Shown: positions 19,676 through 41,990 of the stretch, piece by piece
Layout of the letters: every line of letters starts with the position of its first letter
How positions within the stretch are numbered: the first letter of the stretch is position 1
Assembly: GCA_963833535.1 (NCBI GenBank)
Contig: CAWHYC010000007.1
Span: 9,972 to 73,971 of the forward strand
Length of the DNA stretch: 64,000 nt
Direction: 5' to 3'
From: an uncultured Chloroflexia bacterium
GTDB taxonomy: Bacteria; Chloroflexota; Limnocylindria; Limnocylindrales; CSP1-4
The notes under the pieces: generated by a model
Told to the model about the DNA's origin: nothing
The model's input: the letters and a program-made list of their open reading frames with translations, nothing else
Databases searched by the model: none
Position numbers and translations under genes: made by a program

Positions 19676-19699
19676 GGAATCAAACCCGGAAATCAAACC
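19676..19699 (+). repeat. imperfect 12-bp tandem GGAATCAAACCC / GGAAATCAAACC
   Basis: Read directly. The second copy supplies the -35-like TCAAAC of the sigma-1 upstream motif. Confidence 0.6.
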
Positions 19700-19726
19700 T
19701 TATGCGCTGCCTCCGACTCATAGTGG
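19693..19726 (+). promoter_or_regulatory. shared ECF-family upstream motif, copy 1
   Basis: TCAAACC-N20-CATAGTGG, ending about 40 nt before GTG 19767. Confidence 0.4.
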
Positions 19727-19766
19727 TCGAAGCGTCCAGACGGGACGCCCCTTAGCGGAGTGCAGC

Positions 19767-20324
19767 GTGGATCGGTCGCTCGTCCTGGCGGCTCGATCCG
19801 GGGATGAGGAGGCCTTCGCCTCCCTCGCCCGCGGCTCGGCAGATCGGCTCTTCGCCGTCGCGCATCGGATCCTGCGTGACGTCGACCGGGCCGAGGATGC
19901 CGTGCAGCAGACGCTCGTCACGGCCTGGCGCGAGCTCCCGGGGCTCCGCGAGGCCGAGCGTTTCGACGCCTGGCTCCATCGCATCCTCGTCCACGCCTGC
20001 TACGCGGAAGCGCGGCGGGCACGGAGTTGGACGGCCAACGTGCGGGCGCTGCCCGTCGACGGGCCGGCCAGTCGCGACACGACCCAGGACGTGGTCGATC
20101 GCGACACCCTCGAGCGCGGCTTCCGGCGTTTGCCGCCGGAGCAGCGAGCGATCTTCGTCTTCCACCACTACCTCGGCCTGACGCTGGGCGAGATCGCCGA
20201 TACGCTCGACGTCCCGCTCGGCACCGTCAAGTCGAGGCTTCACTACGCCACCAACACCCTTCGGGCCGCCCTCGAGGCGGACGCCCGGACGGTGACTCCA
20301 TCCTCGCGGGAGCGCATGGCATGA
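19767..20324 (+). CDS. ECF (group 4) sigma-70 factor, module 1
   Basis: Region 2 AEDAVQQTLVTAWRELPGLR..FDAWLHRILVHAC. Region 4 LPPEQRAIFVFHHYLGLTLGEIADTLDVPLGTVKSRLHYA. GTG start. Confidence 0.9.
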   Translation: MDRSLVLAARSGDEEAFASLARGSADRLFAVAHRILRDVDRAEDAVQQTLVTAWRELPGLREAERFDAWLHRILVHACYAEARRARSWTANVRALPVDGPASRDTTQDVVDRDTLERGFRRLPPEQRAIFVFHHYLGLTLGEIADTLDVPLGTVKSRLHYATNTLRAALEADARTVTPSSRERMA

Positions 20325-21262
20325 ACGGCAACACCGACTTCGACCGGATCGCCCAGTCCTGGCTGCAGGACGGGCCGACCGAGATGCCGGACCGCTCGCT
20401 TCAGGCTGCCCTCGACGAGGTCCATGTGACATCACAGCAGCGCTTCGGCGCCGCTCGGAGGGTCATCCCCATGAACGGCAATACCTGGCGGGTCGCGGCG
20501 GCTGCCGTGATCGGCCTGCTCATCATCCTCGGCGGCATCACCTTCCTGGGTGGGCGGCAGGGCGGCGTCGGCGGTCCCCCGGCCAGCCCCACGCCGGTTT
20601 CGCCCACTCCGAGCCCGACGCCCCCGCCGCTCGCGCTCCCTCCAGACGAGGGAACGCTTCTGGGCGGCACCTACCGTGCCGGCGACCCATTCCTCGTGCC
20701 GCTCACATTCACCGCGCCGGTCGGCTTCATCGGGCGCCTAGGGGGGGACTACCACGCGTACGTCGCCTCAACGCCCTCTAGGCCGGACCTGGTCGACTTC
20801 TCGATCTTCGACCAGGTGTACGCGGATCCCTGCCACTTCGAACAGGGTTTCGTGACTCCCACGCCCGGACCGACGGTCGATGACCTCGTCGCCGCGTTGG
20901 GTGCCATGCCGTCCATCGTTGCGACGGCCCCGGTGGATGTCACGGTGGACGGGTATCACGGGAAGCAACTGACCATCACGTCGCCGAAAGACTTCAATGG
21001 CTGCGCGGTGTCGCCCGATGGATTCGCTCTCTGGCAGCTCCCTCTCGGTACGATATACACCATGGAGCCCGATCAGAGCTATCGCGTCTCGATCATCGAC
21101 GTCGCCGGACAGCGGCTGGTGATCCTTGTGGGTGAAGGACGTGATCTGACTGCACAGGAACGCACCGACGCAAAGAGCATCTTCGACTCCATCCAGATCG
21201 AGGCGCCGGCCTCCAGCCTGTCGCCGGCCGGCGCATCCCCTGGCGCATCGCCGGCGCCGTAG
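20321..21262 (+). CDS. single-pass membrane partner of sigma-1 (putative anti-sigma), ADPC...DSIQIE-type outer domain
   Basis: ATGA overlap with the sigma stop. N-terminus is DRIAQSWLQDGPTEMPDRSL...TSQQRF...RVIPMNGN, then a TM helix, then a Pro/Thr linker. Confidence 0.7.
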   Translation: MNGNTDFDRIAQSWLQDGPTEMPDRSLQAALDEVHVTSQQRFGAARRVIPMNGNTWRVAAAAVIGLLIILGGITFLGGRQGGVGGPPASPTPVSPTPSPTPPPLALPPDEGTLLGGTYRAGDPFLVPLTFTAPVGFIGRLGGDYHAYVASTPSRPDLVDFSIFDQVYADPCHFEQGFVTPTPGPTVDDLVAALGAMPSIVATAPVDVTVDGYHGKQLTITSPKDFNGCAVSPDGFALWQLPLGTIYTMEPDQSYRVSIIDVAGQRLVILVGEGRDLTAQERTDAKSIFDSIQIEAPASSLSPAGASPGASPAP

Positions 21263-21286
21263 CGGCCACCTTCGCCGAGCCCAGAG

Positions 21287-21322
21287 GCCCCGCCCGGATC
21301 ACTCGCCGGTCGGGGCTTCTCC
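21287..21322 (+). terminator. intrinsic-terminator-like hairpin after module 1
   Basis: GCCCCGCCCGG-atcactcg-CCGGTCGGGGC (11-bp stem, one mismatch), followed by TTCTCC. Confidence 0.5.
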
Positions 21323-21329
21323 GTGCCCG

Positions 21330-21364
21330 TTGAACCTTTGCCCGCATGCGACCATCTCTAGTGG
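21330..21364 (+). promoter_or_regulatory. shared ECF-family upstream motif, copy 2
   Basis: TTGAACC-N21-TCTAGTGG. Confidence 0.4.
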
Positions 21365-21403
21365 GTGAAGCGCCCCCAGATCGGGCGCCGCGGGAGGGAA
21401 CCC

Positions 21404-21952
21404 ATGCGGGAGAGGTTGGTCGAGCGGGCTCGCGGAGGCGACGAGAGCGCCTTCACCGAGCTCGTCGACCTGGAAGGCGACCGCTGCTACGCGATCGCGT
21501 ACCGGATCCTCCGGGACGTCGAGCGGGCGCAGGACGCCGTCCAGCAGGCCCTCATCCTGGCCTGGCGCGAGCTTCCGCGGTTGCGCGACCCGGAGCGTTT
21601 CCAGCCCTGGCTCTACCGCCTCCTGGTCAACGCCTGCTACGAGGAGGCACGTCGGTACCGACGCTGGAGCCTGCGTGTCCGCACCCTGCCGGTCGACGGG
21701 CCGACAGTCGAGGACACGACCGCCTCGATCCTCGACCGGGATGCCCTGGAACGCGCGTTCCTGAAGCTCTCGCCGGAGCACCGAGCGGTCTTCGTCCTGC
21801 ACCACCACATCGGGCTGCCCCTGGCCTCGATCGCCGAGGTCGTCGGCGTGCCGATCGGCACGGTCAAATCCCGACTCCACCACGCCACGCGGAACCTCCG
21901 CGCGGCCATCACCGCAGACGATCACGAGGCGGCGGAGGCGCGTCCGGCATGA
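21404..21952 (+). CDS. ECF sigma factor, module 2
   Basis: The ORF is listed from GTG 21365. ATG 21404 is preferred because it follows GGGAGGGAA and gives MRERLVERARGGD, aligned with the paralogs. Regions 2 and 4 are as in module 1. Confidence 0.9.
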   Translation: MRERLVERARGGDESAFTELVDLEGDRCYAIAYRILRDVERAQDAVQQALILAWRELPRLRDPERFQPWLYRLLVNACYEEARRYRRWSLRVRTLPVDGPTVEDTTASILDRDALERAFLKLSPEHRAVFVLHHHIGLPLASIAEVVGVPIGTVKSRLHHATRNLRAAITADDHEAAEARPA

Positions 21953-22794
21953 AGGCACTTCACGATCCCGACGCGATCATCGCCGCCTGGCTCGAAGACG
22001 GACCCCTCGCGCTGCCTGATGGCTCGCGCCGGGTGGTCGAGAGCAGCATCCACCTGACACCACAACGGCGGGGGCCGCTGGCGTGGCTCCCGTGGAGGGA
22101 TCCAACCATGAACGGTAATTCGACGCGCGTGGCACTGGCCGCCGTCGTCGCGCTGATCATCCTTGTAGGTGGCGGCATCTACCTGGCCAATCGGAGCTCA
22201 GGCGGGGTGGGAGGCCCACCGGCCGCGACCCCGAGCCCCATCGCCACGGCCACCGCCGCGCCGTCACCCGCGTCGTCAACGTCACCGACACCAGGGCCGA
22301 CACCGGTCGACACGACCGGCTGGGTGGCTTTCTCGTCGGATCGCTATGGCTACGACATCGCCTATCCGCCGACATGGGCAGAAGAAGCTGCAACGCGCGA
22401 TTGGTCGATCGATCTCGATCGGGGCCAAAACGTGAACCCAGGCGCCGACCACTTCGTCGGGGGCCCGGACGGGGACCAGACCGGCGTCACGGTGTTCTCG
22501 GCCGCCGTCCCCGCGGCCATGTCGAACGACGACTGGATCACCTCGTACCTGCCGACGGATCGCCCCATCTGCATCACCACGGACAAGTGGGAGGCCGTCG
22601 CCGTCGACGGTCAGCCGGCCATGCTCGAGCCGAGTGTCTGTGGCGACGACCAGGCCTTCCTCTTCAGCGGAAAGCGGGTCTACGTCTTCTCCATCTGGCG
22701 AACCGACCAGGTGCCCCTGCTCAAGGGCTTCCTTTCGACCGTTCGCTTCCACCCCGACGCCCTGCCGTCCACCTCACCTCCGGCCAGCCCGTAG
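21949..22794 (+). CDS. single-pass membrane partner of sigma-2, unrelated outer domain
   Basis: ATGA overlap. N-terminus is DAIIAAWLEDGPLALPDGS...TPQRRG...WRDPTMNGN, then a TM helix. The outer domain has no family I recognise. Confidence 0.7.
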   Translation: MKALHDPDAIIAAWLEDGPLALPDGSRRVVESSIHLTPQRRGPLAWLPWRDPTMNGNSTRVALAAVVALIILVGGGIYLANRSSGGVGGPPAATPSPIATATAAPSPASSTSPTPGPTPVDTTGWVAFSSDRYGYDIAYPPTWAEEAATRDWSIDLDRGQNVNPGADHFVGGPDGDQTGVTVFSAAVPAAMSNDDWITSYLPTDRPICITTDKWEAVAVDGQPAMLEPSVCGDDQAFLFSGKRVYVFSIWRTDQVPLLKGFLSTVRFHPDALPSTSPPASP

Positions 22795-22880: not shown

Positions 22881-22914
22881 GTGAACGTTTCCGCCTTGTG
22901 GTCCGCCGTTAAGG
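22881..22914 (+). promoter_or_regulatory. shared ECF-family upstream motif, copy 3 (weaker -10 part)
   Basis: GTGAACG-N22-TTAAGG. Confidence 0.3.
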
Positions 22915-22959
22915 TATGAGCGCGGCCACGACGGCCGCGCGGCAGCCCTGGGAGGGGCC

Positions 22960-23505
22960 GTGGACCGCGAGCTGGTCGAGCGGGCACGCAGCGGCGACCA
23001 CGATGCATTCGAGGTCCTCGCGGCCGGCATCGTCGATCGTTGCTACGCCGTTGCGCGCCTGATCCTGCGAGACGCGGATCGCGCCGAAGACGCTGCCCAG
23101 GAGGCGCTCGTGCGCTGCTGGAGGGACCTGCCCTCCCTGCGCGAGGTCGACCGCTTCGACGCCTGGCTGAGCCGCCTCCTGATGCACGCCATCAACGACG
23201 AGTTCCGGCGCGGCTCGCGTTTCAAGGCGCAGATCACCGTCCTGTCCAGGGAGCCGGCCGTCGCCGACACAAGCGGCGCCATCGCTGACCGCGAGCTCCT
23301 CGACCGCGGCTTTGCCCGCCTCTCGCTTGAGCACCGCTGCGTCGTCGTCCTCCGACTCCATCTTGGCCTCTCCATCGAGGAGACAGCGACCACCCTTGGG
23401 ATCCCTGTCGGGACGGCGAAGTCCCGGCTGCATTACGCGACCGAGGCCCTGCGTCGAGCACTCGAGGCCGACGCTGAACCCCGACCGCAGGAGGTGAGCG
23501 CATGA
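22960..23505 (+). CDS. ECF sigma factor, module 3
   Basis: GTG start after GGGAGGGG. MDRELVERARSGD...AEDAAQEALVRCWRDLPSLR...LGIPVGTAKSRLHYA. Confidence 0.9.
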   Translation: MDRELVERARSGDHDAFEVLAAGIVDRCYAVARLILRDADRAEDAAQEALVRCWRDLPSLREVDRFDAWLSRLLMHAINDEFRRGSRFKAQITVLSREPAVADTSGAIADRELLDRGFARLSLEHRCVVVLRLHLGLSIEETATTLGIPVGTAKSRLHYATEALRRALEADAEPRPQEVSA

Positions 23506-24428
23506 ACGCCGGGCCCGACGTCGAGCGCCGCATCTCTGCATGGCTGGCCAAGGAGGTCCCGACCCGGGCCCCGGATCGGATCCTCCCGGCCGCCTTCGAA
23601 CGCACGCGACACACACATCAGCGGCGCTTCGGTGCCGCCTGGAGGATGATCACCATGAACCGCACCTGGCAGCTCGCGACGGCCGCCGTCGTGGGCATCC
23701 TCTTGATCGGCGCGGGGGCCGTCTGGATCGGTGGCTCCAATGGCATCGGAACGCCCGTTGCCACGCCGTCGCCGACGCCACCACCGTTGCCATTCCCATC
23801 GTCCGGCGCCGTCGACTCCGGGACCTACCGGATCACGATCCCTGGCGTCCCCGCGGTGACCGTAACCTTGCCGGCCGGCTGGACGAACGGCGGAGCCGGC
23901 GGGCCGACCAAGAATGACAGCACCCCGCTCCTCGTGAGCCTCAGCCCATGGGTCGTCGGCAACATCTACGCCGACCCCTGCAAGTGGGGCGACGGCGCGC
24001 TCGATCCGCCGGTCGGACCGTCGGTCGACGACCTGGCCAACGCCCTGGCCAAGCAGCCCTTGCGCAATGGCACGACGCCGACCCCCGTCACCGTCGATGG
24101 CTATTCGGGGAAGTACATGGAGCTGAGCACGCCGGCTGATCTCGACCTCGCGACGTGCTCGAAGGCCGCCGGTGGGAGCGCATCCACGCCCGGCGCCTTC
24201 GTCACCTGGGTCGGAACGGCGGGGGACGACTACAACGGGCTCGCCACCCCCGGCTCGCATGACCGGGTCTGGATCCTCGACGTGGACGGTGTTCGGCTCG
24301 TGCTCGATGCGACCGACTACGCATCGGCGACATCCGAAGACAAGGCCGAGCTGCAGAGCATCATCGACTCGATCCAGATCGAGCCGCTGTCAGCGTCGCC
24401 ATCGGCGTCGCCGGCTGCCAGTCCGTAG
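23502..24428 (+). CDS. single-pass membrane partner of sigma-3, ADPC...DSIQIE-type outer domain
   Basis: ATGA overlap. N-terminus is ERRISAWLAKEVPTRAPDRIL...THQRRFGAAWRMITMN, then a TM helix. C-terminus is ...SIIDSIQIE. Confidence 0.7.
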   Translation: MNAGPDVERRISAWLAKEVPTRAPDRILPAAFERTRHTHQRRFGAAWRMITMNRTWQLATAAVVGILLIGAGAVWIGGSNGIGTPVATPSPTPPPLPFPSSGAVDSGTYRITIPGVPAVTVTLPAGWTNGGAGGPTKNDSTPLLVSLSPWVVGNIYADPCKWGDGALDPPVGPSVDDLANALAKQPLRNGTTPTPVTVDGYSGKYMELSTPADLDLATCSKAAGGSASTPGAFVTWVGTAGDDYNGLATPGSHDRVWILDVDGVRLVLDATDYASATSEDKAELQSIIDSIQIEPLSASPSASPAASP

Positions 24429-24899: not shown

Positions 24900-25721
24900 C
24901 TAGCGCATGAAGTTGCGCGCCATCTCCAGCACGACGCGCGCCCCGTTCGAGATCCAGCCGCCGTCCGACCCGAGGCCGATGAACGTGTAGCCGCGGTCGA
25001 GGTAGGCGGGCACGTCCTCCGCACCCTTGAGGAGGATGCCCGCCGCCTTGCCGTGTGCCCGGCAGGCCGTCGCGACCGTGTCGACGGCGGCCATGAAGGT
25101 CGGGTGCTGGAACTGACCGGGCACGCCCAGACTGTGCGACAGGTCCGTGGGTCCGACGAACAGGACGTCGACACCGTCGAGGGCGGCCATGGCATCCGCG
25201 TTCGCGACCGCGGCCGGGCTCTCGATCTGGAAGATGCCGACCGGCAGGGCGTTCAGCTTCTGGACGTCGGCATGGGCGACCGAGCTCTGGCCAGCGCCGC
25301 GTGTCGAGAGAGCCAGGCCGCGCAACCCGTCCGGTGGGAAGCGCATCCAGCTCACAGCGTCTGCGGCCTGTGCGACGGTCTCCAGGCGCGGGATCATCAC
25401 GCCCTCGGCCCCGAAGTCGAGCGCCCGTCCGATGCGCAGGCGAGTGCCTTCCTCGACTCGCACTAGGGCTGTCGCGGGCGTCGTTTGCAGGGCGTAGATG
25501 CCGGGCAGCAGGTCTGTCTCGGTCAGCGTGCTGTGCTCGAGATCGAGGAGTGCCCAGTCGAGGCCGGTGCGGCCAAGGATCTCGGCCGCGATGGGCGAGG
25601 CCAGGCCGGCAAAGGCGCCGAACGTCACCTCGCCCGCCAGGATGCGGCGGCGCAGGTCGGTGCGCGGCTGGAGCGGGTCAGTCTGCATGGCCGGCCGATG
25701 GTACGACAGCCGATCGCTCAC
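24900..25721 (-). CDS. HpcH/HpaI family aldolase
   Basis: DWALLDLEHS, VRVEEG, GAEGVMIPRLET, IFQIESPAAVANADAMAALDGVDVLFVGPTDLS. Confidence 0.85.
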   Translation of the reverse strand: MSDRLSYHRPAMQTDPLQPRTDLRRRILAGEVTFGAFAGLASPIAAEILGRTGLDWALLDLEHSTLTETDLLPGIYALQTTPATALVRVEEGTRLRIGRALDFGAEGVMIPRLETVAQAADAVSWMRFPPDGLRGLALSTRGAGQSSVAHADVQKLNALPVGIFQIESPAAVANADAMAALDGVDVLFVGPTDLSHSLGVPGQFQHPTFMAAVDTVATACRAHGKAAGILLKGAEDVPAYLDRGYTFIGLGSDGGWISNGARVVLEMARNFMR

Positions 25722-25764: not shown

Positions 25765-26175
25765 CTAATCGCGCGACGGATCGACGATGGCGAGGTCGGC
25801 GAAGTAGGTTCGATAGAACCCGCGATCGCGAGTCAGCAGTCGATCCGCCTGAGTGCGGGCATGTGCGCCGATCAGGAAGTCCGCGATGACCCGGCTGCGT
25901 GGTCCGCCTGTCGCCCGATACCGTCGCCACGCCGCACCGGCGTCGAGCGCGGCCTCCGGGCGCATCTGGTCGAAGTCGAGCTCGAAGCTAGCCAGCGCTT
26001 CCGCTGCCGTGGCGGATGATGGATACGCTGCCGAGAACTCTGCCCAGACGACCTCACAGGCAACGATACGGCCGCGCAGTGTGGCCTCTCGCAGCGCGGC
26101 CAATGACCTGCGCCCGAACGGTGCTCCGACGACCACGACGTCGAAGAGGATCGCCGTGTCGATGGCCGTGATCAC
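25765..26175 (-). CDS. vapC: PIN-domain toxin (VapC-type)
   Basis: MITAIDTAILFDV... and ...DFLIGAHA...LLTRDRGF. Overlaps the upstream antitoxin gene by 4 nt. Confidence 0.85.
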   Translation of the reverse strand: MITAIDTAILFDVVVVGAPFGRRSLAALREATLRGRIVACEVVWAEFSAAYPSSATAAEALASFELDFDQMRPEAALDAGAAWRRYRATGGPRSRVIADFLIGAHARTQADRLLTRDRGFYRTYFADLAIVDPSRD

Positions 26176-26414: not shown

Positions 26415-26541
26415 ACTAAGATGGTACGCATTCCTACATCTCACGTCAAGGTTCAACGATCGAACCAGGGCGCGTTCGAGGCGGACCCGCAGCGGTTACG
26501 CTAGGCGGTCGGCTGATGATTCGGCCCAGGAGGTGGGTGTC

Positions 26542-28676: not shown

Positions 28677-28706
28677 CAGTAGACGCGCTCACGTCGAGCG
28701 CGCAGC

Positions 28707-31796: not shown

Positions 31797-33299
31797 CTAG
31801 GGGACGGGTTGAGTAGCTGTGACGATCGGCCGCCAGTCCGCGCTCTCGGCCCCGGGCGCGAGCTGCATGAGGTTCGTCCCGTCGAGGTCCACGCTCCAGA
31901 TCTCGCCCGATGGAAAGGGCCCGTCGGGTGACGCACGGACGCGCTCGCTCGGAGGTTCATGGCGGAACATGATTCGGCTGCCGTCGATGCTCCAGCGGAT
32001 CGGCGTGTCCATGCCTGGCAGATGCGTGAGCTGGCTGATCCCGCCGTCCGGGACGCTGAGGATGGCGAGCTCGAGGCCGTCCGTGGACGCGTTCTGATCG
32101 TTCGCGCTCGCGCCGGTGGGCTGAGTGACGAGGATGTGAGTGCGATCCGGGGACCAGACCGCGCGTGACCCGTTGCCGGTATCACCGATGTCGCCCAGGT
32201 ACGTCTCGTCCGACCCGTCCGGAGCGACCGACCGCAGACCGATCGCAGCGAGGCACAAGGCGTCGGGTATGCACCGCGACACGAACAGGACGCGATCGCC
32301 CGCCGGCGACCATGTCACAAGGGTCTCCGCGGAGCCGGGCGAGTCGGTGACCTGCGCTGCTCTACCGCTGCCGACGTCGAGGGTCCACAGGTCGAACCGG
32401 ACGCCGGGGTCACCAGCCGAGGCAGGCTCGCCGTTCCGCCCGACAGGACACACGCACCCGGAGATCGCCAGCGTCCGTCCGTCCGGCGCCCACGCGATGT
32501 TGCCCACGGCAGGACGCGCTACAGGGCCAGCGCCCGGGCCGGACAGCTGGAAGCCGGCCGGGAGCTTGAACGTCCGGATCCGGTCGCCTCCGAGCCCATA
32601 GACTGAGACCACGAGCTGGTCCTCGATGGATTCCATCACGGCGATCCGATCCGAGGTCGGCGCCCAGAGGGGCTCGCCCACGAACGGTCCCGGCCCGATC
32701 CGCGACTCGAACCTGGAGTCCGGGTCGACGATCGTGATCGCCATGCTCCCGTCGGCGAAGCTGTATTGCCAGGCGAGATGTTGACCGTCGGCTGACCAAC
32801 GAACCGTGCCGGCGGATCGGGTCGGTGGAGTTTCCACGACCCGAGCGTTCGTCCCATCGGGATCCGCGAAGAAGATCGTCCCGTCGATGCCGTATGCCAG
32901 CGTGCCGAGCCCCGCTTGCCTGGGGCCAGCAAGGCTGGCGGGGTTCGATGGGCTCGGACTCGCTGTGGAGGCCTTGTCGGTCGTCTCGGGCGACGGCAGA
33001 GTCGCCGGTCGCTCCACGAGCGGCCGCGTCGGCATTGTCCGTGGCCGGCTACCGACGGCGACTGCGACAGCCGCGATCGTGATCGCCAGCATCGCCATCG
33101 TCAGCACCCACAACACGCGGCGATCGACCGCCAACGACGGCCACGCTCGTGCGAGGCCGACCTTGGCGCGGCGGCCACCGGAAGTCGCCCGCTCCGCGAT
33201 GGAGGCGGCGTCGAAGGGCCGTACGGCGACCTCCCCGAAGTCTCGCAGCTGTGCCACGAGATCCAGCTCGAAGGGGTCGCTCGTGTAGCGCTCAGTCAT
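31797..33299 (-). CDS. single-pass membrane partner of sigma-5 with TolB-like (PD40) beta-propeller
   Basis: 8-nt overlap with the sigma-5 stop. One TM helix (VLWVLTMAMLAITIAAVAVAV). Repeated WSADGQHLAW / WAPDGRTLAISG / WSPAGDRVLFVS / WSPDRTHILV / WSIDGSRIMF. The N-terminus does not carry the motif of the other six partners. Confidence 0.7.
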   Translation of the reverse strand: MTERYTSDPFELDLVAQLRDFGEVAVRPFDAASIAERATSGGRRAKVGLARAWPSLAVDRRVLWVLTMAMLAITIAAVAVAVGSRPRTMPTRPLVERPATLPSPETTDKASTASPSPSNPASLAGPRQAGLGTLAYGIDGTIFFADPDGTNARVVETPPTRSAGTVRWSADGQHLAWQYSFADGSMAITIVDPDSRFESRIGPGPFVGEPLWAPTSDRIAVMESIEDQLVVSVYGLGGDRIRTFKLPAGFQLSGPGAGPVARPAVGNIAWAPDGRTLAISGCVCPVGRNGEPASAGDPGVRFDLWTLDVGSGRAAQVTDSPGSAETLVTWSPAGDRVLFVSRCIPDALCLAAIGLRSVAPDGSDETYLGDIGDTGNGSRAVWSPDRTHILVTQPTGASANDQNASTDGLELAILSVPDGGISQLTHLPGMDTPIRWSIDGSRIMFRHEPPSERVRASPDGPFPSGEIWSVDLDGTNLMQLAPGAESADWRPIVTATQPVP

Positions 33300-33837
33300 G
33301 ATCGAGCTCCCTTCGAAGACGCATGATCGCGCGGGCGAGGCGGCTGCGGACGGCGGTCGCGCTCATGCCCACTTCGCGACCGATCTCCGCCGATTCCATG
33401 CCGGCGATATAGCGGAGGGCCAGGAGCGTGCGGTCCTTGGGGTCGATCCGACGGAGGGCCACGCCGAGGTCGACCCGGGTCGCCAGCTCGTCGTCAAAGG
33501 TCGGCATGCCGGCGTCGCCGATGGCGATCTCACGGACCTGGCGCCGTCCACGTCGGCGGACCAGCTGGCGGGCCTCGTTCGCAGCCACCGACATCAGCCA
33601 GGGTCGCAACCGCTCCGGGTCGCGCAGGCTGCCCAGGCGGCGCCATGCGATGGTCCACGCTGCCTGGGCCGCGTCATTGGCGAGGTCGACATCACCACAG
33701 ACGAGCTGGGCGATGCGCAGGAGATCCGCATGATGGCTGGCCACGATGCGCGTGAACGCGATCTGGTCCCCGGCGACCGCCCGGTCGACCAAGCTAGCGG
33801 TGATCTCGCCGTCGGCTCCGGCCAGGACGCTGGTCAT
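33292..33837 (-). CDS. ECF sigma factor, module 5 (different subfamily)
   Basis: ANDAAQAAWTIAWRRLGSLR...RPWLMSVAANEAR and LRYIAGMESAEIGREVGMSATAVRSRLARA. Confidence 0.9.
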   Translation of the reverse strand: MTSVLAGADGEITASLVDRAVAGDQIAFTRIVASHHADLLRIAQLVCGDVDLANDAAQAAWTIAWRRLGSLRDPERLRPWLMSVAANEARQLVRRRGRRQVREIAIGDAGMPTFDDELATRVDLGVALRRIDPKDRTLLALRYIAGMESAEIGREVGMSATAVRSRLARAIMRLRRELDHD

Positions 33838-35352: not shown

Positions 35353-35406
35353 CCGCGGAGTCTAGGACCGCGGCGCCCCGCCGCGCGTGCGGCGCCGGGT
35401 GGTGCG

Positions 35407-36282
35407 ATGATGCCACCCATGGTGCGTCCCCAGCATCGCCTGCTCGAATCGCCGGCCGAGGTGCGGGAGTTCCCGCTCGGCCGCGTCGAGATCTACGAGA
35501 TCGGCGATGCCGTCGTGGGCAGGCAGATCTTCCAACCCGGCTGGCGATGGTCGGAAAGCGTCGGCGTGATCGCCGGGACACGGCTCTGTGAGTATCACCA
35601 CCAGGGCTATGCCTTCCAGGGCCACGCGCATATCGAGCTCGAAGATGGCTCGAGCTTCGATATCGGGCCCAACGAGGCCTACGAGATCCCCCCGGGCCAC
35701 GATGCCTGGGTCACCGGCGACGACGCATGGATCGCCCTCGACTGGGCGGGGATGCGCTCCTTTGCCCGCCCCGTCGCCGGCAGCGGTGAACGCATCCTCT
35801 CGACGATCCTCTTCACCGACATCGTGGATTCGACGGCGACCGCCGCGAGGATCGGCGATTCCGCCTGGCGCGACCTCCTCGCGCAGCACTACGAGCGCGG
35901 CCGTTCTGAGCTGGATCGATACCGCGGCCGCGAGATCGACACGACGGGCGACGGGTTCCTCGCGCTCTTCGACAGCTCTGAACGAGCGGTCCGCGCCGCC
36001 GCCGGTATCTGCATGGCGGCCAAGGCCATCGGCATCCAGACTCGGGCAGGCATCCACACCGGCGAGGTCGAGCTCGTACCAGGCAACGTGCGCGGCGTGG
36101 CCGTCCACATGGCGGCGCGGATCATGGCCCTGGCCGGCCCCAGCGAGGTGCTCGTCTCGGGCACCACCCATGACCTGCTGGTGGGTTCGGAGCTGGTCTT
36201 CGAGGACCGTGGCCTCCACGAGCTCAAGGGCATCACCGGCGCGCGGCAGGTCTACGCGCTGGCTCGACCGCCCGACGACTGA
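35407..36282 (+). CDS. cupin domain fused to a class III adenylate/guanylate cyclase domain
   Basis: Cupin part: CEYHHQGYAFQGHAHIELEDG. Cyclase part: ILFTDIVDSTATAARIGD...IDTTGDGFLALF...AGIHTGEVE...GVAVHMAARI. Confidence 0.8.
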   Translation: MMPPMVRPQHRLLESPAEVREFPLGRVEIYEIGDAVVGRQIFQPGWRWSESVGVIAGTRLCEYHHQGYAFQGHAHIELEDGSSFDIGPNEAYEIPPGHDAWVTGDDAWIALDWAGMRSFARPVAGSGERILSTILFTDIVDSTATAARIGDSAWRDLLAQHYERGRSELDRYRGREIDTTGDGFLALFDSSERAVRAAAGICMAAKAIGIQTRAGIHTGEVELVPGNVRGVAVHMAARIMALAGPSEVLVSGTTHDLLVGSELVFEDRGLHELKGITGARQVYALARPPDD

Positions 36283-37239: not shown

Positions 37240-38409
37240 TCAGAGGTTGCCGCGCTTCTCCTGCTCTCGCTCGATGGCCTCGAAGAGGGCCTTGAAGTTG
37301 CCGACCCCGAAGCCCCGCGAGCCGTGCCGCTCGATGATCTCGAAGAAGAACGTCGGCCGATCCTGGACGGGCCGAGTGAAGATCTGGAGGAGGTAACCCT
37401 CCTCGTCGCGATCGGCTTCGATGCCCAGCTCCTCCAGCGTCTCGATGGGGACGCCGACGTCGCCGACGCGATCGGCGAGCGTCGCGTAATACTCGTGCGG
37501 GAGGCCCAGGAACTGGACGCCGTTCTCGCGCAGCTGGCGCACGGTAGCCACGATGTCGTCGCTGCGCAGGGCGATGTGCTGCGTGCCGGCATCGAGGTAG
37601 TAGTCCAGGAACTCCTGGATCTGGCTCTTCTTCTTGCCCGCCGCAGGTTCGTTGATGGGGAACTTGATGCGCCCGTTGCCGTTGGTCATGACCTTCGACA
37701 TCAAGGCGCTGTACTCGGTGTGGATGACCTTGTCGTCGTAGTGGATGAGCTGCGCGAAGCCGAGGACGTCACGGTAGAAGTCGACATAGCGGTTCATGTC
37801 GCCGAGCTCGACGTTGCCGACGCAGTGGTCGATCTCGAGGAGCGAGAGACCCGTCGCCGCCCGCGCCGGCTTCTTGATCTGGCGAAAGCCCGGAGCGAAC
37901 GGGCCGTGGTAGTCGCTCCGGTCGATGAACGAGTGGATGACCTCGCCGTAGGTGTGGATGGCGCTGCGACGGAAGGTGCCGTCCTCGTCCGAGCCGGCCT
38001 CGGCGTACTCCAGGTAGGAGCGCGCGCCACGGCTCGTCGTCTCGCGCCACGCCGATCGGACGTCGTCGACGGCGAAGGCGATGTCATGGACGCCATCGCC
38101 GTGACGATGGACGTGTTCCGCGATCTCGCCGTCCGGTGAGAGGGCACCGGTGAGGACGAGCGTGATGTCGTTCTGGCGCATGACGTACATCGTCCGGTCG
38201 CGGACGCCCGTCTCCAGGCCGGCATAGGCGATCGGCGTGAAGCCCCACAGGGCTCGGAAGTAGTGGGCCGCCTGGCGAGCGTTGCCGACCCAGAACTCGA
38301 CGTGGTCGATGCCGTTGAGCGGCAGGAAGTCCTGTGCCTTGGAGTAGGCGTCGGTGTCGATGTGGGCGCCGGCCTGGTTGGTGGCCCTGCGCGAGATGGT
38401 CTCGGTCAT
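37240..38409 (-). CDS. hppD: 4-hydroxyphenylpyruvate dioxygenase
   Basis: GIDHVEFWVGNARQAAHYF...IDHCVGNVELG...INEPA...SQIQEFL...GTQHIALRSDDI...FFEIIERHG..GFGVGNFKALFEAIE. ATG 38409 follows GAGGAG. The ORF is listed from 38442. Confidence 0.9.
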   Translation of the reverse strand: MTETISRRATNQAGAHIDTDAYSKAQDFLPLNGIDHVEFWVGNARQAAHYFRALWGFTPIAYAGLETGVRDRTMYVMRQNDITLVLTGALSPDGEIAEHVHRHGDGVHDIAFAVDDVRSAWRETTSRGARSYLEYAEAGSDEDGTFRRSAIHTYGEVIHSFIDRSDYHGPFAPGFRQIKKPARAATGLSLLEIDHCVGNVELGDMNRYVDFYRDVLGFAQLIHYDDKVIHTEYSALMSKVMTNGNGRIKFPINEPAAGKKKSQIQEFLDYYLDAGTQHIALRSDDIVATVRQLRENGVQFLGLPHEYYATLADRVGDVGVPIETLEELGIEADRDEEGYLLQIFTRPVQDRPTFFFEIIERHGSRGFGVGNFKALFEAIEREQEKRGNL

Positions 38410-38483
38410 GGGCTCGACTCCTCGTCCCTCGTTCCGCGCCATGCGCGCTCGTGGCCCTCATCGTACGACGCCAGCGGGCTAGA

Positions 38484-38517
38484 TTGAACGCGGATGGCGC
38501 GCGTCGCCCCATAGGGG
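38484..38517 (+). promoter_or_regulatory. shared ECF-family upstream motif, copy 5
   Basis: TTGAACG-N20-CATAGGGG, then a conserved leader GGACGGCGCCCCCGCTGGGCGCC. Confidence 0.45.
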
Positions 38518-38553
38518 TCGGACGGCGCCCCCGCTGGGCGCCGCTGAGGGACG

Positions 38554-39112
38554 ATGCAGGTGGATCGCGATCTCGTGGAGGCGGCACGCAACGGGGACCG
38601 GGAGGCATACGCCGACCTGATCCGTGCGCGTGGCGACCGGCTCTTCGCGATCGCGCAGCGGATCCTCCGCGACGTCGATCGGACCGAGGATGCCGTGCAG
38701 GACGCATTGGTGATCGCCTGGCGCGACCTGCCTGGACTCCGCGATCCGGACCGCTTCGACGCGTGGCTGCATCGCCTCCTCGTCCGATCCTGCGTGTCCG
38801 AGGCGACGCGTGAGCGCCGCCTCGTCGCCAACCTGCGCGTGCTCCCGGCGGACCTCCCGACCGGCACGGACGACTACCTGACCGTCGCCGACCGGGACCA
38901 GCTGGAGCGCGGCTTCCGACGCCTGCCACCGGAGCAGCGCGCCCTCCTCGTGCTGCGCCACTACGCGGGTACTGGAGCCGGCCGAGATCGCCGAGTCACT
39001 CGGCATCCCGGCCGGCACGGTCCGCTCCCGACTCCACCATGCCCACCGCGCGATGCGTGCCGCCCTCGAGGCGGATGCACGCGCGATCGCGATCGGAGGA
39101 CGCTCGGCATGA
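38554..39112 (+). pseudogene. ECF sigma factor, module 6, reading frame broken by a 1-nt insertion in region 4
   Basis: Regions 2 and 3 are intact up to LLVLRHYAG. After the extra a at about 38971, the listed frame reads junk and runs in frame into the partner gene (ORF 38554..39837). The +1 frame reads LEPAEIAESLGIPAGTVRSRLHHAHRAMRAALEADARAIAIGGRSA-stop, with TGA at 39110..39112. The likely start is GTG 38560. Confidence 0.75.
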
Positions 39113-39837
39113 CACGCGACCGTGACATCGAGCGCGTCCTCGAGCACTGGCTGAGCGACGGCGTCAACGAGATGCCCGATCGCGTCTACCAGTCGATCTT
39201 CGATCGCGTCGAGCGCCAGCCCCAGGCCATCGCACCGCGCCTCCTTCGGAGGCTTCCCGCCATGAACGGTTCATTGCGCTGGATCGCGGCCGCCGCGGCC
39301 GTCATCCTCATCGCCGTCGTCGGCTTCGCCATCGTCGGCCGCCCATCCGACTCCGGCATCGGCACGCAGCCGACCGCGGTGCCACCGACCGCGGCGCCAT
39401 CTCCGACAGCCACGGCGACCGTGGCCGCCCCATCGCCGTCCGTCGAGGTCGGGGTTCCGGGGGCCTGCGATCTGATGTCCGACACCGAGGCCGCCGGTGC
39501 ACTGCACGCTTTGACGACCGTCATCGGCCTGCCGCCAAACGGTGAAGACCCTGCGGTCCCGAACCGGTACTGCATCTACATGGTCGGTGACGCGCAGCTC
39601 GTGACGCTTCAGTACGAGAAGGAGGACGGCGTATCGATCTTCGACACCTGGAGGTCGCAGACGGGGGTGCAGCCCGTGCCCGGCCTTGGCGACGGCGCCG
39701 TGTGGGATCCGGTCCAGACGACCCTGCACATCCTGAAGGGATCGAGACTCGTCTCGATTTCGTCGAACGAAGGCGCCCCGCCGATGACGCTCGAGACAGC
39801 AAAGGCGATCGCGGCGATCGTGCTCGGGCGCATGTAG
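39109..39837 (+). CDS. single-pass membrane partner of sigma-6, small outer domain
   Basis: The ATG overlaps the restored sigma stop (ATGA). N-terminus is IERVLEHWLSDGVNEMPDRVY...RQPQ...RRLPAMNGS, then a TM helix. Confidence 0.7.
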   Translation: MTRDRDIERVLEHWLSDGVNEMPDRVYQSIFDRVERQPQAIAPRLLRRLPAMNGSLRWIAAAAAVILIAVVGFAIVGRPSDSGIGTQPTAVPPTAAPSPTATATVAAPSPSVEVGVPGACDLMSDTEAAGALHALTTVIGLPPNGEDPAVPNRYCIYMVGDAQLVTLQYEKEDGVSIFDTWRSQTGVQPVPGLGDGAVWDPVQTTLHILKGSRLVSISSNEGAPPMTLETAKAIAAIVLGRM

Positions 39838-39931
39838 GAGGACGCCGTCCCACGGCTGACACTGTTGCAGTTGACCGGGACAGGAGCGCGGGAGCCTGAC
39901 TACAGGTTGCCGCGCTTCGCCTAAGCATCGA

Positions 39932-39962
39932 GGCCCGCCGGGCGACCGGCGGGCCTCTTCTC
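39932..39962 (+). terminator. intrinsic terminator after module 6
   Basis: GGCCCGCCGG-gcga-CCGGCGGGCC, a perfect 10-bp stem, followed by TCTTCTC. Confidence 0.6.
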
Positions 39963-39985
39963 GTCGCCACCCCCGAGCGCCAAGA

Positions 39986-40020
39986 TTGAACGACGAGCCC
40001 TTCGGCACGACCGATAGGAG
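39986..40020 (+). promoter_or_regulatory. shared ECF-family upstream motif, copy 6
   Basis: TTGAACG-N21-GATAGGAG, then a leader GGACGGCGTCCCCGATGGGCGCC paralogous to copy 5. Confidence 0.45.
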
Positions 40021-40035
40021 TGGACGGCGTCCCCG

Positions 40036-40614
40036 ATGGGCGCCACTCGAGGAGCGAGACAGGTGGATCGCGATCTCGTGGAGCAGGCCCAGGCCGGGGA
40101 TCGGGAGGCGTACGTCGACCTGATCCGCGGCCGGAGCGACCGGCTCTTCGCCATCGCCTACCGCGTGCTCCGTGACGTCGATCGGGCCGAGGATGCCCTG
40201 CAGGATGCGCTGGTCATCGCCTGGCGAGACCTGCGTGGGCTCCGCGATGCGGACCGCTTCGACGCCTGGCTGCACAAGGTGCTCGTCAACACCTGTATCG
40301 CCCACGCGACGCGCGAGCGCCGCCGCATGGTCAACCTCCAGGTGCTGCCGGTCGACGGACCGGAGGGCCCGGACACGACCCTTTCCGTGGCTGATCGAGA
40401 CCAGCTCGCACGCGGGTTCCGACGGCTGCCGCCCGACCAGCGGGCGATCCTCGTGATGAACCACTACCTGGGCTACAGCCCGGCCGAGATCGCCGACACG
40501 CTCGGCATCCCGCCGGGTACGGCCCGCTCCCGACTCCACCATGCCCACCGCGCCATGCGGGCCGCCCTGGAGGCGGACGCTCGGACCGTCGCCATCGGAG
40601 GTCGTTCAGCATGA
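40036..40614 (+). CDS. ECF sigma factor, module 7
   Basis: Close paralog of module 6. The ATG at 40036 is not conserved in the paralog (gctggg). The shared start is probably GTG 40063, 9 nt after GAGGAG. Confidence 0.9.
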   Translation: MGATRGARQVDRDLVEQAQAGDREAYVDLIRGRSDRLFAIAYRVLRDVDRAEDALQDALVIAWRDLRGLRDADRFDAWLHKVLVNTCIAHATRERRRMVNLQVLPVDGPEGPDTTLSVADRDQLARGFRRLPPDQRAILVMNHYLGYSPAEIADTLGIPPGTARSRLHHAHRAMRAALEADARTVAIGGRSA

Positions 40615-41990
40615 CGAACGAACGTGACATCGATCGTCTGCTCGACCACTGGCTGAGCGACGGCCCGACCGAGGTCTCGGACCGCGTCGTGCTCGACGTC
40701 GCGGACCGGATCGAACGCCAATCCCAGCGACCTGCGTGGCGCTTCCCTCGGAGGCCCACCATCATGACCAGCTCCGTCCGCTGGGCCGCGGTCCTCGTGG
40801 CCCTTGCGCTCATGGCCGTCGTCGGTTTCGCCGTTCTCGGCCGCCCATCCGACTCTGGCATCGTCGGCGTGTCGCCGTCCGATAGCTCCGCACCGACCGA
40901 CTCGCCCGGTGCATCAAACGACTCGACCCCCACAGCATCACCGGAAGGCCCACTCGGCGGCGGCCTTATCCTCGCCCACGAACGTGGGAAGGAGGGCGCG
41001 CTGGGCGTCTACCTGCTGGACGCTGGCACCGGCGAGCGGACGCTCCTCGGGACGCTGCCGGCGAGACCCCTCTACTCGCGGCCGTATAGCCTCCAATGGA
41101 CTGCCGACCACAAGCATGTCTTGATCGCTGATGGACTCGTCGGCAGACGCGTCAGGACCCTTGATGGCCCCACGGCGGCAGCCGACGGCATCACGTTCGC
41201 GTGTTGCCCTCCGGTGGTTCAAAAGGCCGCCGATCCCGACTTCCGGGGCTGGGTCATGTCGCCGCAGGGCGATCGGCTCGCCGGCCGTCGCCTGGTCGAT
41301 TTCACCGGGATCGGGAGCGTCGATGACGCGGTCGCCATCTTCGATGTCGAAGCCGCGACCGTGCGGATCCTTGCGATGCCCTCGGGGACGCAGCTGTTGC
41401 AGTGGATCGCGCCCTGGTCGCCAGACGGCACGACCCTCGCGGTCGCCGGCTGCAACCCGTGCAACAACGCAGAGCGCCCAGAGGACCCACCGACCGCGAT
41501 CCAGCATCAGCACCTATACGTCGTGCCAGCCAACGGCGCGCCGGTGCGCGACCTCCTCGATGTCACTGCGGTGACGTTCGGAAGTCCGGCCTGGTCACCG
41601 GATGGTTCGACCATCGCCATCGTGTACAGCGCGTGCCGACCCGGAGAGCAGCCGCCGTACTGTTCTGGAGGGACAAGGCAGATCGTGAGTGTCAAGGATG
41701 GTCAACGATCCGTCCTCGCGGACACGGGCGATAACGTCGCGCCCCCTGTCTGGTCGCCGGACGGTCGGCGGATCGCGTTCAGCGATGATGACGGCGTCTT
41801 CGTCATGGACGCAGATGGCGGCCACAAGACCAGGCTCGCCGACGGCTCCACCCCGCGCTGGTCACCGGACAGCCAGTGGCTCTTGTACGAAGTCCCGGCC
41901 CCAGAGGGCGAGCCCGGCGACCTGTGGGTCGTCAGCGCCGACGGAGGCGAACCGCATCGCGTCGGTGCCTATCAGGCAGGCGCCTGGTGA
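40611..41990 (+). CDS. single-pass membrane partner of sigma-7 with TolB-like (PD40) beta-propeller
   Basis: ATGA overlap. N-terminus is IDRLLDHWLSDGPTEVSDRVV...RQSQRPAWRFPRRPTIM, then a TM helix. Repeats: WSPDGTTLAVAG / WSPDGSTIAIVY / WSPDGRRIAFSD / WSPDSQWLLYE. Confidence 0.75.
   Translation: MTNERDIDRLLDHWLSDGPTEVSDRVVLDVADRIERQSQRPAWRFPRRPTIMTSSVRWAAVLVALALMAVVGFAVLGRPSDSGIVGVSPSDSSAPTDSPGASNDSTPTASPEGPLGGGLILAHERGKEGALGVYLLDAGTGERTLLGTLPARPLYSRPYSLQWTADHKHVLIADGLVGRRVRTLDGPTAAADGITFACCPPVVQKAADPDFRGWVMSPQGDRLAGRRLVDFTGIGSVDDAVAIFDVEAATVRILAMPSGTQLLQWIAPWSPDGTTLAVAGCNPCNNAERPEDPPTAIQHQHLYVVPANGAPVRDLLDVTAVTFGSPAWSPDGSTIAIVYSACRPGEQPPYCSGGTRQIVSVKDGQRSVLADTGDNVAPPVWSPDGRRIAFSDDDGVFVMDADGGHKTRLADGSTPRWSPDSQWLLYEVPAPEGEPGDLWVVSADGGEPHRVGAYQAGAW

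Follow-up and report, generated by a model that had tools for sequence, protein, structure and literature searches.

Genes and signals at the locus

The analysed window, a 64 kb stretch of DNA, originates from a soil lineage of the Chloroflexota, class Ca. Limnocylindria. It contains seven ECF sigma genes, every one of which overlaps the gene of a single-pass membrane partner:

S1, 19767-20324, plus strand: ECF sigma, Pfam Sigma70_r2 and r4_2
P1, 20321-21262, plus strand: partner, ATGA overlap; N-domain 1-51, TM helix 54-76, Pro/Thr linker, PsbP-like outer domain ~105-295 (AlphaFold2, Foldseek)
S2, 21404-21952, plus strand: ECF sigma, Pfam Sigma70 domains
P2, 21949-22794, plus strand: partner; shared N-domain, TM helix, linker, small outer domain
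S3, 22960-23505, plus strand: ECF sigma, Pfam Sigma70 domains
P3, 23502-24428, plus strand: partner; PsbP-like outer domain (outer-domain HMM, E=2e-61)
S4, 28707-29276, plus strand: ECF sigma (Pfam); GTG at 28719 is the more likely start
P4, 29273-30517, plus strand: partner; extra insert, then PsbP-like C-terminal domain
P7, 31797-33299, minus strand: partner; unrelated N-terminus, TM helix, PD40 propeller
S7, 33292-33837, minus strand: ECF sigma (Pfam); separate subgroup, 29% identity to S1
S5, 38554-39112, plus strand: ECF sigma (Pfam); disrupted, one extra base near 38968-38972
P5, 39109-39837, plus strand: partner; shared N-domain, TM helix, small outer domain
S6, 40036-40614, plus strand: ECF sigma (Pfam); GTG at 40063 is the more likely start
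P6, 40611-41990, plus strand: partner; shared N-domain, TM helix, PD40/TolB-like beta-propeller

All seven sigma genes proposed by an earlier, sequence-only reading were recovered, each with Pfam Sigma70_r2 plus r4 or r4_2 and without region 3, and its description of the units as ECF sigma/membrane-partner modules agrees with the ECF-type Pfam assignment. Their nearest solved relatives are SigW, AlgU, SigE, and SigL, and the top NCBIfam match of S1, TIGR02983, lies under that model's cut-off. Six of the seven pairs are paralogues, and S7/P7 stands apart. The six sigmas share 55-61% sequence identity with S1, and an HMM of the partner N-domain matched precisely the six plus-strand partner ORFs in the window, so the pattern is not due to chance.

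Six ATGA start/stop overlaps had been read from the sequence. They are present at S1/P1, S2/P2, S3/P3, S4/P4, and S6/P6, but S5/P5 has ATGA only in the shifted frame; the 8-nt overlap of the seventh pair, S7/P7, is ATGACTGA as described. The extra base in S5, judged against three orthologues and S6, makes 38554-39837 a single 427-aa ORF, the same fusion as the database gene call P0190, and reflects an indel in the assembly or else marks a pseudogene. S4 (28719), S5 (38560), and S6 may begin further downstream, judging from the conserved leader hairpin (see below) and the 'GTG GAT CG' start seen across the family; in S6 the hairpin spans 40026-40044, which makes GTG at 40063 the more likely start.

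The following signals were predicted around the six paralogous pairs, the leader hairpins by RNA folding:

Promoter of S1, 19693-19726, plus strand: ECF-type, TCAAACC-N18-TCATAGTGG
Promoter of S2, 21331-21364, plus strand: TGAACC...CTCTAGTGG
Promoter of S3, 22882-22914, plus strand: TGAACG...CGTTAAGG
Promoter of S4, 28645-28676, plus strand
Promoter of S5, 38485-38517, plus strand: TGAACG-N19-CCATAGGGG
Promoter of S6, 39987-40020, plus strand: TGAACG-N19-CGATAGGAG
5' leader hairpins of S1, S2, and S3, plus strand: 19732-19748, 21370-21388, and 22920-22940
5' leader hairpins of S4, S5, and S6, plus strand: 28685-28701, 38524-38542, and 40026-40044
Terminator-like hairpin after P1, 21286-21322, plus strand: GC-rich, weak T tail
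Similar GC-rich hairpins after P2 (22837-22871) and P5 (39932-39962), plus strand

The promoter consensus, TGAACG-N~19-CAxTAG, is predicted upstream of all six paralogous sigma genes, and no further copies above chance were found in the window. In the wider family it precedes the start of the sigma domain by 70-79 nt in 43 of the 66 genes that have a -35-like hexamer upstream, out of 102 examined. The leader hairpin, a GC stem of 6-8 bp at a constant position after the -10 element, folded in 35/35 leaders (mean MFE -15.9 vs -11.2 for shuffles); the stem sequence varies while the pairing is maintained. The first three modules had been described as head-to-tail units, each with its own upstream motif and hairpin terminator. 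Promoters are predicted ahead of S1-S3 and hairpins do follow P1 and P2, but a strict terminator scan requiring a T-tail detected none, the hairpins after P1, P2, and P5 included.

Pairing of sigma and partner in the family

The N-domain profile matched 4,834 representative clusters (50% identity) at E<=1e-3 and 2,912 at E<=1e-10. Across 76 related Limnocylindria genomes or loci, an N-domain partner lies directly downstream of 122 of the 131 sigma matches. The 4-nt ATGA/GTGA overlap occurs at 90/103 junctions, and seven others deviate by HMM offset alone. Sigma and N-domain distances are correlated with r=0.70 (permutation maximum 0.11), although such a correlation is to be expected from any two co-duplicated genes. 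When a natural sigma-partner pair was modelled with AlphaFold2 as a pseudo-fusion, the partner helices reached pLDDT 59-73 with pTM 0.40, no improvement over the partner modelled alone (67-74).

Outer domains of the partners

A single TM helix followed by a Pro/Thr/Ser linker had been noted behind the shared N-terminal block. The AlphaFold2 model of P1 (pLDDT 83, >90 across the outer domain) agrees, with helices at 5-17 and 24-34 and the TM helix at 54-76. The residues ahead of the TM helix are basic, and by the positive-inside rule the partner N-terminus would lie inside the cell. Foldseek matched the P1 model to PsbP, CyanoP, Apa, and DcrB (E=3.7e-5 to 8e-4; TM-score of the outer domain 0.48-0.59, relative to target). 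The domain HMM also bears out that P1, P3, and P4 have one outer domain type in common. Its predicted fold is that of PsbP/Mog1/DcrB/LpqN/Apa, but sequence identity to these is 7-15%, it has a conserved Cys pair, and a Pfam search with it gave no match. The TolB-like outer domain reported for P6 consists of PD40/TolB-like repeats, which P7 carries as well. Across the family the cytoplasmic part is retained and the outer domain exchanged, between PsbP/Mog1-like domains, PD40 propellers, and a TRAP solute-binding domain seen in relatives.

The N-domain and its possible origins

The block common to the six plus-strand partners stood up to comparison, with invariant M1, D6, W14, L15, D24, Q39, R47, and M51. 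The N-domain comprises ~50 residues, with two predicted helices and then a basic, Trp-rich juxtamembrane segment; it is translated, since its GC content is 0.745, 0.474, and 0.838 at the first, second, and third codon position and changes fall mostly at the third. The cytoplasmic part had been said to contain no Cys or His. This is correct for Cys, but P1, P2, P3, P5, and P6 have 1-2 His each. With no Cys and no HxxxCxxC motif, the N-domain is indeed not of the zinc-binding anti-sigma type. It is also unusually short, as had been suspected, compared with class I domains, a three-helix bundle plus a fourth helix of 101 +/- 33 residues (PMC7406223, PMC6101532). Profile and sequence searches of Pfam, PDB, and NCBIfam likewise left it unplaced in any described family.

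The N-domain may, tentatively, be a strongly reduced true class I homologue in which helices 1 and 4 have been retained but helices 2-3 and the zinc site are gone; it would then belong to a known family, as a divergent branch, and not represent a new kind of domain. With the TM-free profile, the top natural PDB match is to residues 57-85 of the anti-sigma ChrR, part of helix IV, but with E=0.36 it is not significant database-wide and the resemblance is suggestive only. Furthermore, the W-L-x-(D/E)-G end of helix 1 is similar to the motif of helix 1 in class I domains, L-M-D11-G in RseA, whose D11 contacts sigma4 (PMC7406223). Covariation of partner helix 2 is strongest with sigma2.1-2.2 (raw 0.57, partial 0.33), the contact surface of class I helix 4 (PMC7406223). 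Against a class I origin, the Pfam search of the partner N-domains gave nothing even at E<=1, including zf-HC2, RskA, and other anti-sigma models, and the PDB sequence search gave no significant E-value to any anti-sigma factor. Moreover, just two helices are predicted, and with ~50 residues the N-domain sits at the length limit of Casas-Pastor et al., who set shorter candidates aside because they might be class II domains (PMC7406223). The NCBIfam models NF052375 ('anti-sigma factor') and NF038083 ('CU044_5270 family protein') match 35/40 and 27/40 members, respectively, over residues 19-75, from helix 2 across the juxtamembrane segment into the TM helix. This likeness is sub-threshold (~20 bits vs the 100-bit cut-off) and TM-dependent, as it disappeared entirely when only the 52 cytoplasmic residues were searched.

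It is rather unlikely that the N-domain arose independently as a two-helix clamp and acts like CnrY and NepR of class II (as defined in PMC6101532), with a convergent likeness. Two predicted helices within ~35 residues and a TM helix right after them, as in CnrY, would fit, but the CnrY/NccY model of NCBIfam was touched by only 1/40 members (E=0.038). In addition, CnrY all but lacks an outer domain and relies on a separate sensor, CnrX.

That the partner is a co-transcribed envelope protein, a sigma output and not an anti-sigma, whose N-domain has another cytoplasmic role, is highly improbable: it would accord with the lack of confident AlphaFold2 docking and of significant anti-sigma homology and with an internal start that could yield the outer domain by itself, but gene order, 4-nt coupling, and N-in single-pass topology fit the standard anti-sigma layout, the cytoplasmic part is conserved despite outer-domain swaps, and the N-domain co-diversifies with sigma.

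A probable second start inside the partner genes

The R-x-(P/I)-x-M sequence that had been read as a protein motif is present, but it is largely a DNA-level signal, GGAGG-N9-ATG, located 3-4 codons ahead of the TM helix and lacking in P7, as is the shared N-domain:

Internal GGAGG-N9-ATG of P1, P2, and P3, plus strand: 20457-20473, 22094-22110, and 23641-23657
Internal GGAGG-N9-ATG of P4, P5, and P6, plus strand: 29409-29425, 39248-39264, and 40750-40766

Of 106 partner genes, 87 have GGAGG and 82 have GGAGG-N9-ATG/GTG, the start codon exactly 9 nt past GGAGG being ATG (n=76) or GTG (n=6). The site probably marks a start that gives an isoform without the putative sigma-binding part. A Shine-Dalgarno-like pause aiding membrane targeting of the TM helix, or a by-product of selection for W/R-R-x-x-x-M, is conceivable as well, with the odds leaning against it; the position shortly before the TM helix and the amino-acid conservation of W/R, R, and M would agree with this. 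However, selection at the protein level fails to account for the AGG of GGAGG being the in-frame Arg codon in 86/87 genes, when AGG makes up 7.3% of Arg codons elsewhere and 14% inside W-R dipeptides. It also leaves unexplained the use of CGG in every R-R case and the GTG codon in 6/7 cases in which Val replaces Met, and the internal spacing of 9 nt is the one preferred by canonical starts.

Proposed mechanism and comparison with known systems

We hypothesize, and consider it likely, that these are ECF sigma/anti-sigma modules under autoregulation, with a minimal putative anti-sigma domain specific to the lineage, swapped outer sensor domains, and an additional short isoform. The modules would have been amplified by duplication in soil Ca. 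Limnocylindria Chloroflexota; the two genes of each are translationally coupled via the 4-nt ATGA overlap. The N-domain would keep its cognate sigma at the membrane, its helix 1 (…W-L-x-D/E-G) acting on sigma4 as class I helix 1 does, and helix 2 plus the Q-R-R segment standing in for class I helix 4 at sigma2. Sigma would be released upon a signal at the outer domain, probably via regulated proteolysis, and the freed sigma would transcribe its own operon plus other targets. Initiation at the internal GGAGG-N9-ATG before the TM helix may give a second isoform, TM helix plus outer domain, incapable of binding sigma.

Like class I systems (RseA, RsiW, RskA, ChrR; zf-HC2, RskA), the modules have the putative anti-sigma gene immediately downstream of the ECF sigma gene, an N-in single-pass protein with an outer sensor domain, probable operon autoregulation, an acidic-Gly end of helix 1, and the weak N-domain match to ChrR; the N-domain differs in its length, its two predicted helices, and the absence of HxxxCxxC and of any HMM match. 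With class II (CnrY, NepR) they share a short two-helix cytoplasmic part, membrane-anchored in CnrY as well, but there is no sequence similarity and the partners carry a large, variable outer domain on the same polypeptide. In-frame internal starts are known in bacterial genes: in CheA-S, IF2-beta, and ClpB-79, a Shine-Dalgarno sequence and a start codon within the ORF likewise lead to an N-terminally shortened isoform. To our knowledge, no anti-sigma gene is among these examples, and a full-text literature search found no paper linking anti-sigma factors with internal starts; the case made here comes from sequence comparison. The proposed switch, a stress-type sigma factor paired with a membrane sensor, is of an ordinary kind, in a module that is very common in Ca. 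Limnocylindria, but six sensors have in common an uncatalogued short sigma-side domain and a probable, conserved second ribosome start within the gene.

Results

The sequence-only reading had placed seven ECF sigma genes in this region, and the Pfam search bore this out: the products of S1-S6 (plus strand) and of S7 (33292..33837, minus strand) contain Sigma70_r2, r4/r4_2 and Sigma70_ECF in 7/7 cases, lack regions 1.1 and 3 and are 181-192 aa long, with S5 qualifying as an ECF sigma gene only once a frameshift is repaired. In NCBIfam the sigmas came closest to TIGR02983 (SigE family, Streptomyces type), but their scores of 101-113 bits stay below its cut-off of 141.55. S1 shares 55-61% identity with its plus-strand paralogues and only 29% with S7. 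In the accessible text of the ECF re-classification paper, Chloroflexi are nowhere mentioned. The stop of every sigma gene overlaps the start of the gene for its single-pass membrane partner (P1-P7). The overlap is ATGA at the S1-S4 and S6 junctions and ATGACTGA at S7/P7; the proposal of ATGA in six pairs and another overlap in the seventh thus held for S1-S4, S6 and S7, whereas S5 is frameshifted and has its ATGA only in the shifted frame. Set beside S6 and the orthologues from three related-genome loci (L036, L038 and L040), S5 contains a single additional base near 38968-38972, so its N-terminal part reads in frame into P5 as a 427-aa ORF, and this fused S5-P5 ORF is present in the database as P0190. 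Frameshifts of the same type abound in related long-read MAGs, and the extra base may be an assembly indel or the mark of a pseudogene, the indel being at least as likely. Among the sigma starts first assigned, those of S4, S5 and S6 had to be revised: the leader hairpin, which is conserved, and the start 'GTG GAT CG' shared across the family make later starts likely, at 28719, 38560 and 40063, respectively.

Relatives were sought with the six-sigma alignment using one genome per species, which gave at least 598 pattern matches and at least 452 confirmed relatives. The best 76 of these at least 452 relatives come nearly all from MAGs labelled Chloroflexota, Chloroflexia or Ca. Limnocylindria/Limnocylindrales, and the S6 counterpart in L038 is 98% identical. 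The cytoplasmic N-terminal block of the partners, hereafter the N-domain, was found in 76/76 best loci, where it lies directly downstream of the sigma in 122 of 131 sigma matches. The 4-nt overlap (ATGA/GTGA) recurs at 90 of 103 junctions, and 7 others are off merely by the HMM offset. Two to five modules (sigma and partner pairs) occur within 8.5 kb in 21/74 loci, and therefore tandem arrays are typical of the lineage. An exhaustive search with the N-domain profile returned 4,834 representative clusters, defined at 50% identity, with E<=1e-3; at the stricter E<=1e-10 the number is 2,912. The G+C content of the window is about 69%. Sigma factors were reported to be more numerous in soil than in freshwater members of the Limnocylindria class (PMC13212565).

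The six plus-strand partners had been described as sharing one N-terminal block. The alignment of P1-P6 shows invariant M1, D6, W14, L15, D24, Q39, R47 and M51, and an N-domain HMM run over the 64-kb window matched exactly these six ORFs, so that this description stands. The N-domain is truly translated, because G+C at codon positions 1/2/3 is 0.745/0.474/0.838 and differences between related genes are in excess at third positions (468, vs 244 and 194 at the others). In the AlphaFold2 model of P1 (overall pLDDT 83), helices are predicted at residues 5-17 and 24-34 and the TM helix at 54-76; between helix 2 and the TM helix lies a conserved but poorly ordered Q-R-R…W-R segment. Beyond the TM helix follow a Pro/Thr linker and a well-modelled domain at about 105-295, in agreement with the single TM helix and Pro-containing linker noted at first. 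The outer domain of P1 is assigned by Foldseek to the PsbP/CyanoP/Apa/LpqN/DcrB/Mog1 fold (E from 3.7e-5; TM-score 0.48-0.59 relative to target). The same type is found in P3 and P4, and PD40 propellers are carried by P6 and P7, which matches the three similar outer domains and one TolB-like propeller that had been noted among P1-P6. Furthermore, one relative has a TRAP solute-binding (DctP) outer domain, almost none of 124 family representatives has any Pfam domain, and a PsbP-like HMM matched 35/123 N-domain ORFs in related loci. Matches of this HMM without an N-domain were not accepted as stand-alone PsbP-like domains, since nearly all were pieces of frameshifted genes or ORFs truncated by the end of a locus. 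The variety of outer domains across the family therefore indicates that the cytoplasmic part was retained while the outer domain was exchanged.

The N-domain had appeared to belong to no described family, and the searches agree with this. In the six partners and 40 family members it had no Pfam match at E<=1, zf-HC2, RskA and the other Pfam anti-sigma models included; the sole recurring weak Pfam match was DUF2275, in 8/40 members. A PDB profile search with the TM helix included returned membrane segments only. The NCBIfam 'anti-sigma factor' model NF052375 was matched by 35/40 members and NF038083 by 27/40, both at about 20 bits (13-23 for NF052375), far under the curated cut-off of 100. When the 52 cytoplasmic residues were searched alone, both matches were lost entirely; their basis is therefore the juxtamembrane and TM segment. 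They tell little about the sigma-binding part and were rejected as a sign of homology to an anti-sigma domain. With the TM-free profile, the top natural PDB match was the anti-sigma factor ChrR (residues 57-85) over N-domain residues 18-48, with E=0.36, not significant database-wide. The match stands out in that anti-sigma chains form a very small share of the database and had been the candidate beforehand. A zinc-binding (ZAS) domain had been ruled out at first sight for want of Cys and His. None of the six cytoplasmic parts has Cys, hence none has HxxxCxxC, and the exclusion of ZAS is upheld; His does occur.

The motif TGAAC(G/C)-N~19-C(A/x)TAG precedes all six plus-strand sigma genes, so that each of these modules has its own upstream motif, as was first read for the three head-to-tail modules. 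The -35 region of S1 (19676-19705) is a direct duplication, GGAATCAAACC CGGAAATCAAACC, and its -35 reads TCAAAC where the family form is TGAAC. A -35-like hexamer was found within 200 nt upstream of 66/102 sigma genes, at 70-79 nt from the sigma-domain start in 43 of those 66. A scan of the 64-kb window for further promoter copies marking target genes gave chance-level extras only. The module promoters look autoregulatory. Right past the -10 element, a 6-8 bp GC hairpin occupies the same place in 35/35 leaders folded. The stems vary in sequence between paralogues and species while pairing is retained. With a mean MFE of -15.9, the leaders fold more stably than shuffles (-11.2) or the upstream segment (-5.5). 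RNAalifold found no pairs on the MAFFT leader alignment because the hairpins are misaligned there; leaders folded singly show the hairpin. Rfam had no match within 19000-42500. The leader hairpin might stabilise the 5' end or act as a regulatory site. P1, P2 and P5 are each followed by a GC-rich hairpin whose T tail is weak.

Leader hairpins and GGAGG-N9-ATG sites of the plus-strand modules
S1/P1 (+): leader hairpin 19732-19748; GGAGG-N9-ATG 20457-20473
S2/P2 (+): leader hairpin 21370-21388; GGAGG-N9-ATG 22094-22110
S3/P3 (+): leader hairpin 22920-22940; GGAGG-N9-ATG 23641-23657
S4/P4 (+): leader hairpin 28685-28701; GGAGG-N9-ATG 29409-29425
S5/P5 (+): leader hairpin 38524-38542; GGAGG-N9-ATG 39248-39264
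S6/P6 (+): leader hairpin 40026-40044; GGAGG-N9-ATG 40750-40766

In P1-P6 (6/6), GGAGG stands exactly 9 nt ahead of an in-frame conserved Met, just before the TM helix; P7 has no such site. GGAGG was found at the equivalent place in 87/106 partner genes, and in 86 of these 87 the 'invariant' Arg is encoded, in frame, by its AGG. Elsewhere in the partner genes AGG accounts for 7.3% of Arg codons; across W-R dipeptides as a whole it accounts for 14%. The codon ahead of AGG is TGG in 61 genes and CGG in 23, and 9 nt past GGAGG there is an ATG in 76 genes and a GTG in 6. The complete GGAGG-N9-ATG/GTG is thus present in 82/106 family genes, and the background rate for in-frame GGAGG-N9-RTG does not exceed 0.085 per kb. 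A 9-nt spacing is likewise preferred where the partner genes have their canonical starts, with GGAGG in only 58/106.

Distances between sigmas and between N-domains are correlated with r=0.70 (permutation maximum 0.11), and partner helix 2 co-tracks sigma2.1-2.2 best (raw 0.57, partial 0.33). As evidence on the interaction, these comparisons are stronger than the structural model described next, though indirect. Searching with concatenated sequences yielded natural sigma-partner pseudo-fusions, which arise from frameshifts near the sigma stop, and one of them (P0188) was modelled with AlphaFold2 from a 144-row alignment. The sigma part reached pLDDT above 90 and the partner helices 59-73, not above the partner alone, with pTM 0.40; the partner helices having gained no confidence, the model was rejected as interface evidence. 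Its Foldseek matches were sigma chains only, and it fits compact anti-sigma-bound sigmas (5wuq_A, 4cxf_A; rmsd ~10 A) better than RNA-polymerase-bound ones (~24 A), which is weak evidence. One orthologue group contains single sigma-partner ORFs on metagenome contigs (P0187, P0189, P0191, P0193-P0195, P0202, P0204 and P0210). These were rejected as Rosetta-stone fusions, since the frame switches fall at varied positions within the last ~15 sigma codons and many tails are out of frame. This scatter makes long-read assembly indel errors the most likely source, with no fusion evidence to be drawn, and a real fusion clade a less likely one.

Genes between and just upstream of the modules include four of aromatic/tyrosine catabolism, namely those for the aldolase, the two dioxygenase-like proteins and FAH listed below, which are scattered between the modules and of which none has the module promoter.

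Neighbouring genes
17965-19230 (-): serine beta-lactamase-family protein, just upstream of the first module
19074-19610 (-): DinB/MDMPI_N-like protein, just upstream of the first module
24903-25721 (-): HpcH/HpaI aldolase
25768-26175 (-): PIN-domain protein, probably a toxin
26172-26456 (-): short ORF just upstream of the PIN gene, could be an antitoxin
30545-31765 (-): homogentisate dioxygenase-like protein
34342-35352 (-): fumarylacetoacetate hydrolase (FAH)
about 35800-36282 (+): adenylate/guanylate cyclase catalytic domain at the end of ORF 34504-36282, which is probably shorter as a real gene because its 5' part overlaps the opposite-strand FAH gene
37243-38442 (-): 4-hydroxyphenylpyruvate dioxygenase-like protein

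Discussion

In bacterial signalling, pairs of an ECF sigma and its anti-sigma form the third major mode, and synthetic biology uses them as orthogonal parts. We consider it likely that the modules are such pairs. Gene order, coupling, co-diversification and topology lend indirect support to the partner as a putative anti-sigma factor. Anti-sigma domains of class I consist of a three-helix bundle and one further helix, those of class II are two-helix clamps, and RsbN represents class III (PMC6101532). The mean length in class I is 101 +/- 33 residues, and the conserved contacts of this class are those of helix 4 with sigma2.1/2.2 and of helix 1 with sigma4 (PMC7406223). At roughly 50 residues the N-domain is indeed shorter than usual anti-sigma domains, as had been supposed, and unlike class I it has only two predicted helices before the TM helix (two independent AlphaFold2 models of moderate confidence, pLDDT 55-74). 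A minimal domain that would retain only the two class I contact helices fits three features: the two predicted helices, the W-L-x-(D/E)-G end of helix 1 and the resemblance of helix 2 to the ChrR segment. An independent class II-like (CnrY/NepR) clamp may account for the same evidence; the CnrY/NccY model NF033790 was matched by just 1/40 members (E=0.038).

The simplest reading of GGAGG-N9-ATG, judged from its conservation, is that it is probably a conserved internal translation start. The predicted internal product opens with M-N-x-x-x-R followed by a hydrophobic helix; it would thus be an outer domain that is held by a signal anchor and lacks the part that binds sigma. A full-text literature search found no paper tying anti-sigma genes to internal starts. 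We tentatively hypothesize that the Limnocylindria partners combine an undescribed minimal anti-sigma domain with two-product genes, giving a full-length and an internal-start short form, although the odds are rather against this combined reading. The full-length anti-sigma would be produced in step with the sigma via ATGA coupling, and the internal GGAGG-N9-AUG would independently yield a membrane-anchored sensor domain lacking the sigma-binding part. Since the operon would depend on its sigma, induction would raise the level of the short form, which could be a decoy for the signal or the protease, take part in feedback or itself be what the module puts out. If true, a conserved start inside anti-sigma genes would give ECF signalling a new layer of stoichiometry control. 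If ~50 residues suffice to hold a sigma, the N-domain would rank with the smallest anti-sigma domains anchored in a membrane and would help to define the minimal interface. The family has thousands of members and is dominant in an abundant yet uncultured soil class, and both its sigma-side domain and most of its sensor domains are absent from Pfam.

Compared with known systems, the type is ordinary: an ECF sigma with a membrane anti-sigma, autoregulated and duplicated. What is new is a minimal cytoplasmic domain absent from the catalogues, how large the family is within a soil class that is uncultured, the mostly uncatalogued sensor domains and the conserved putative internal start.
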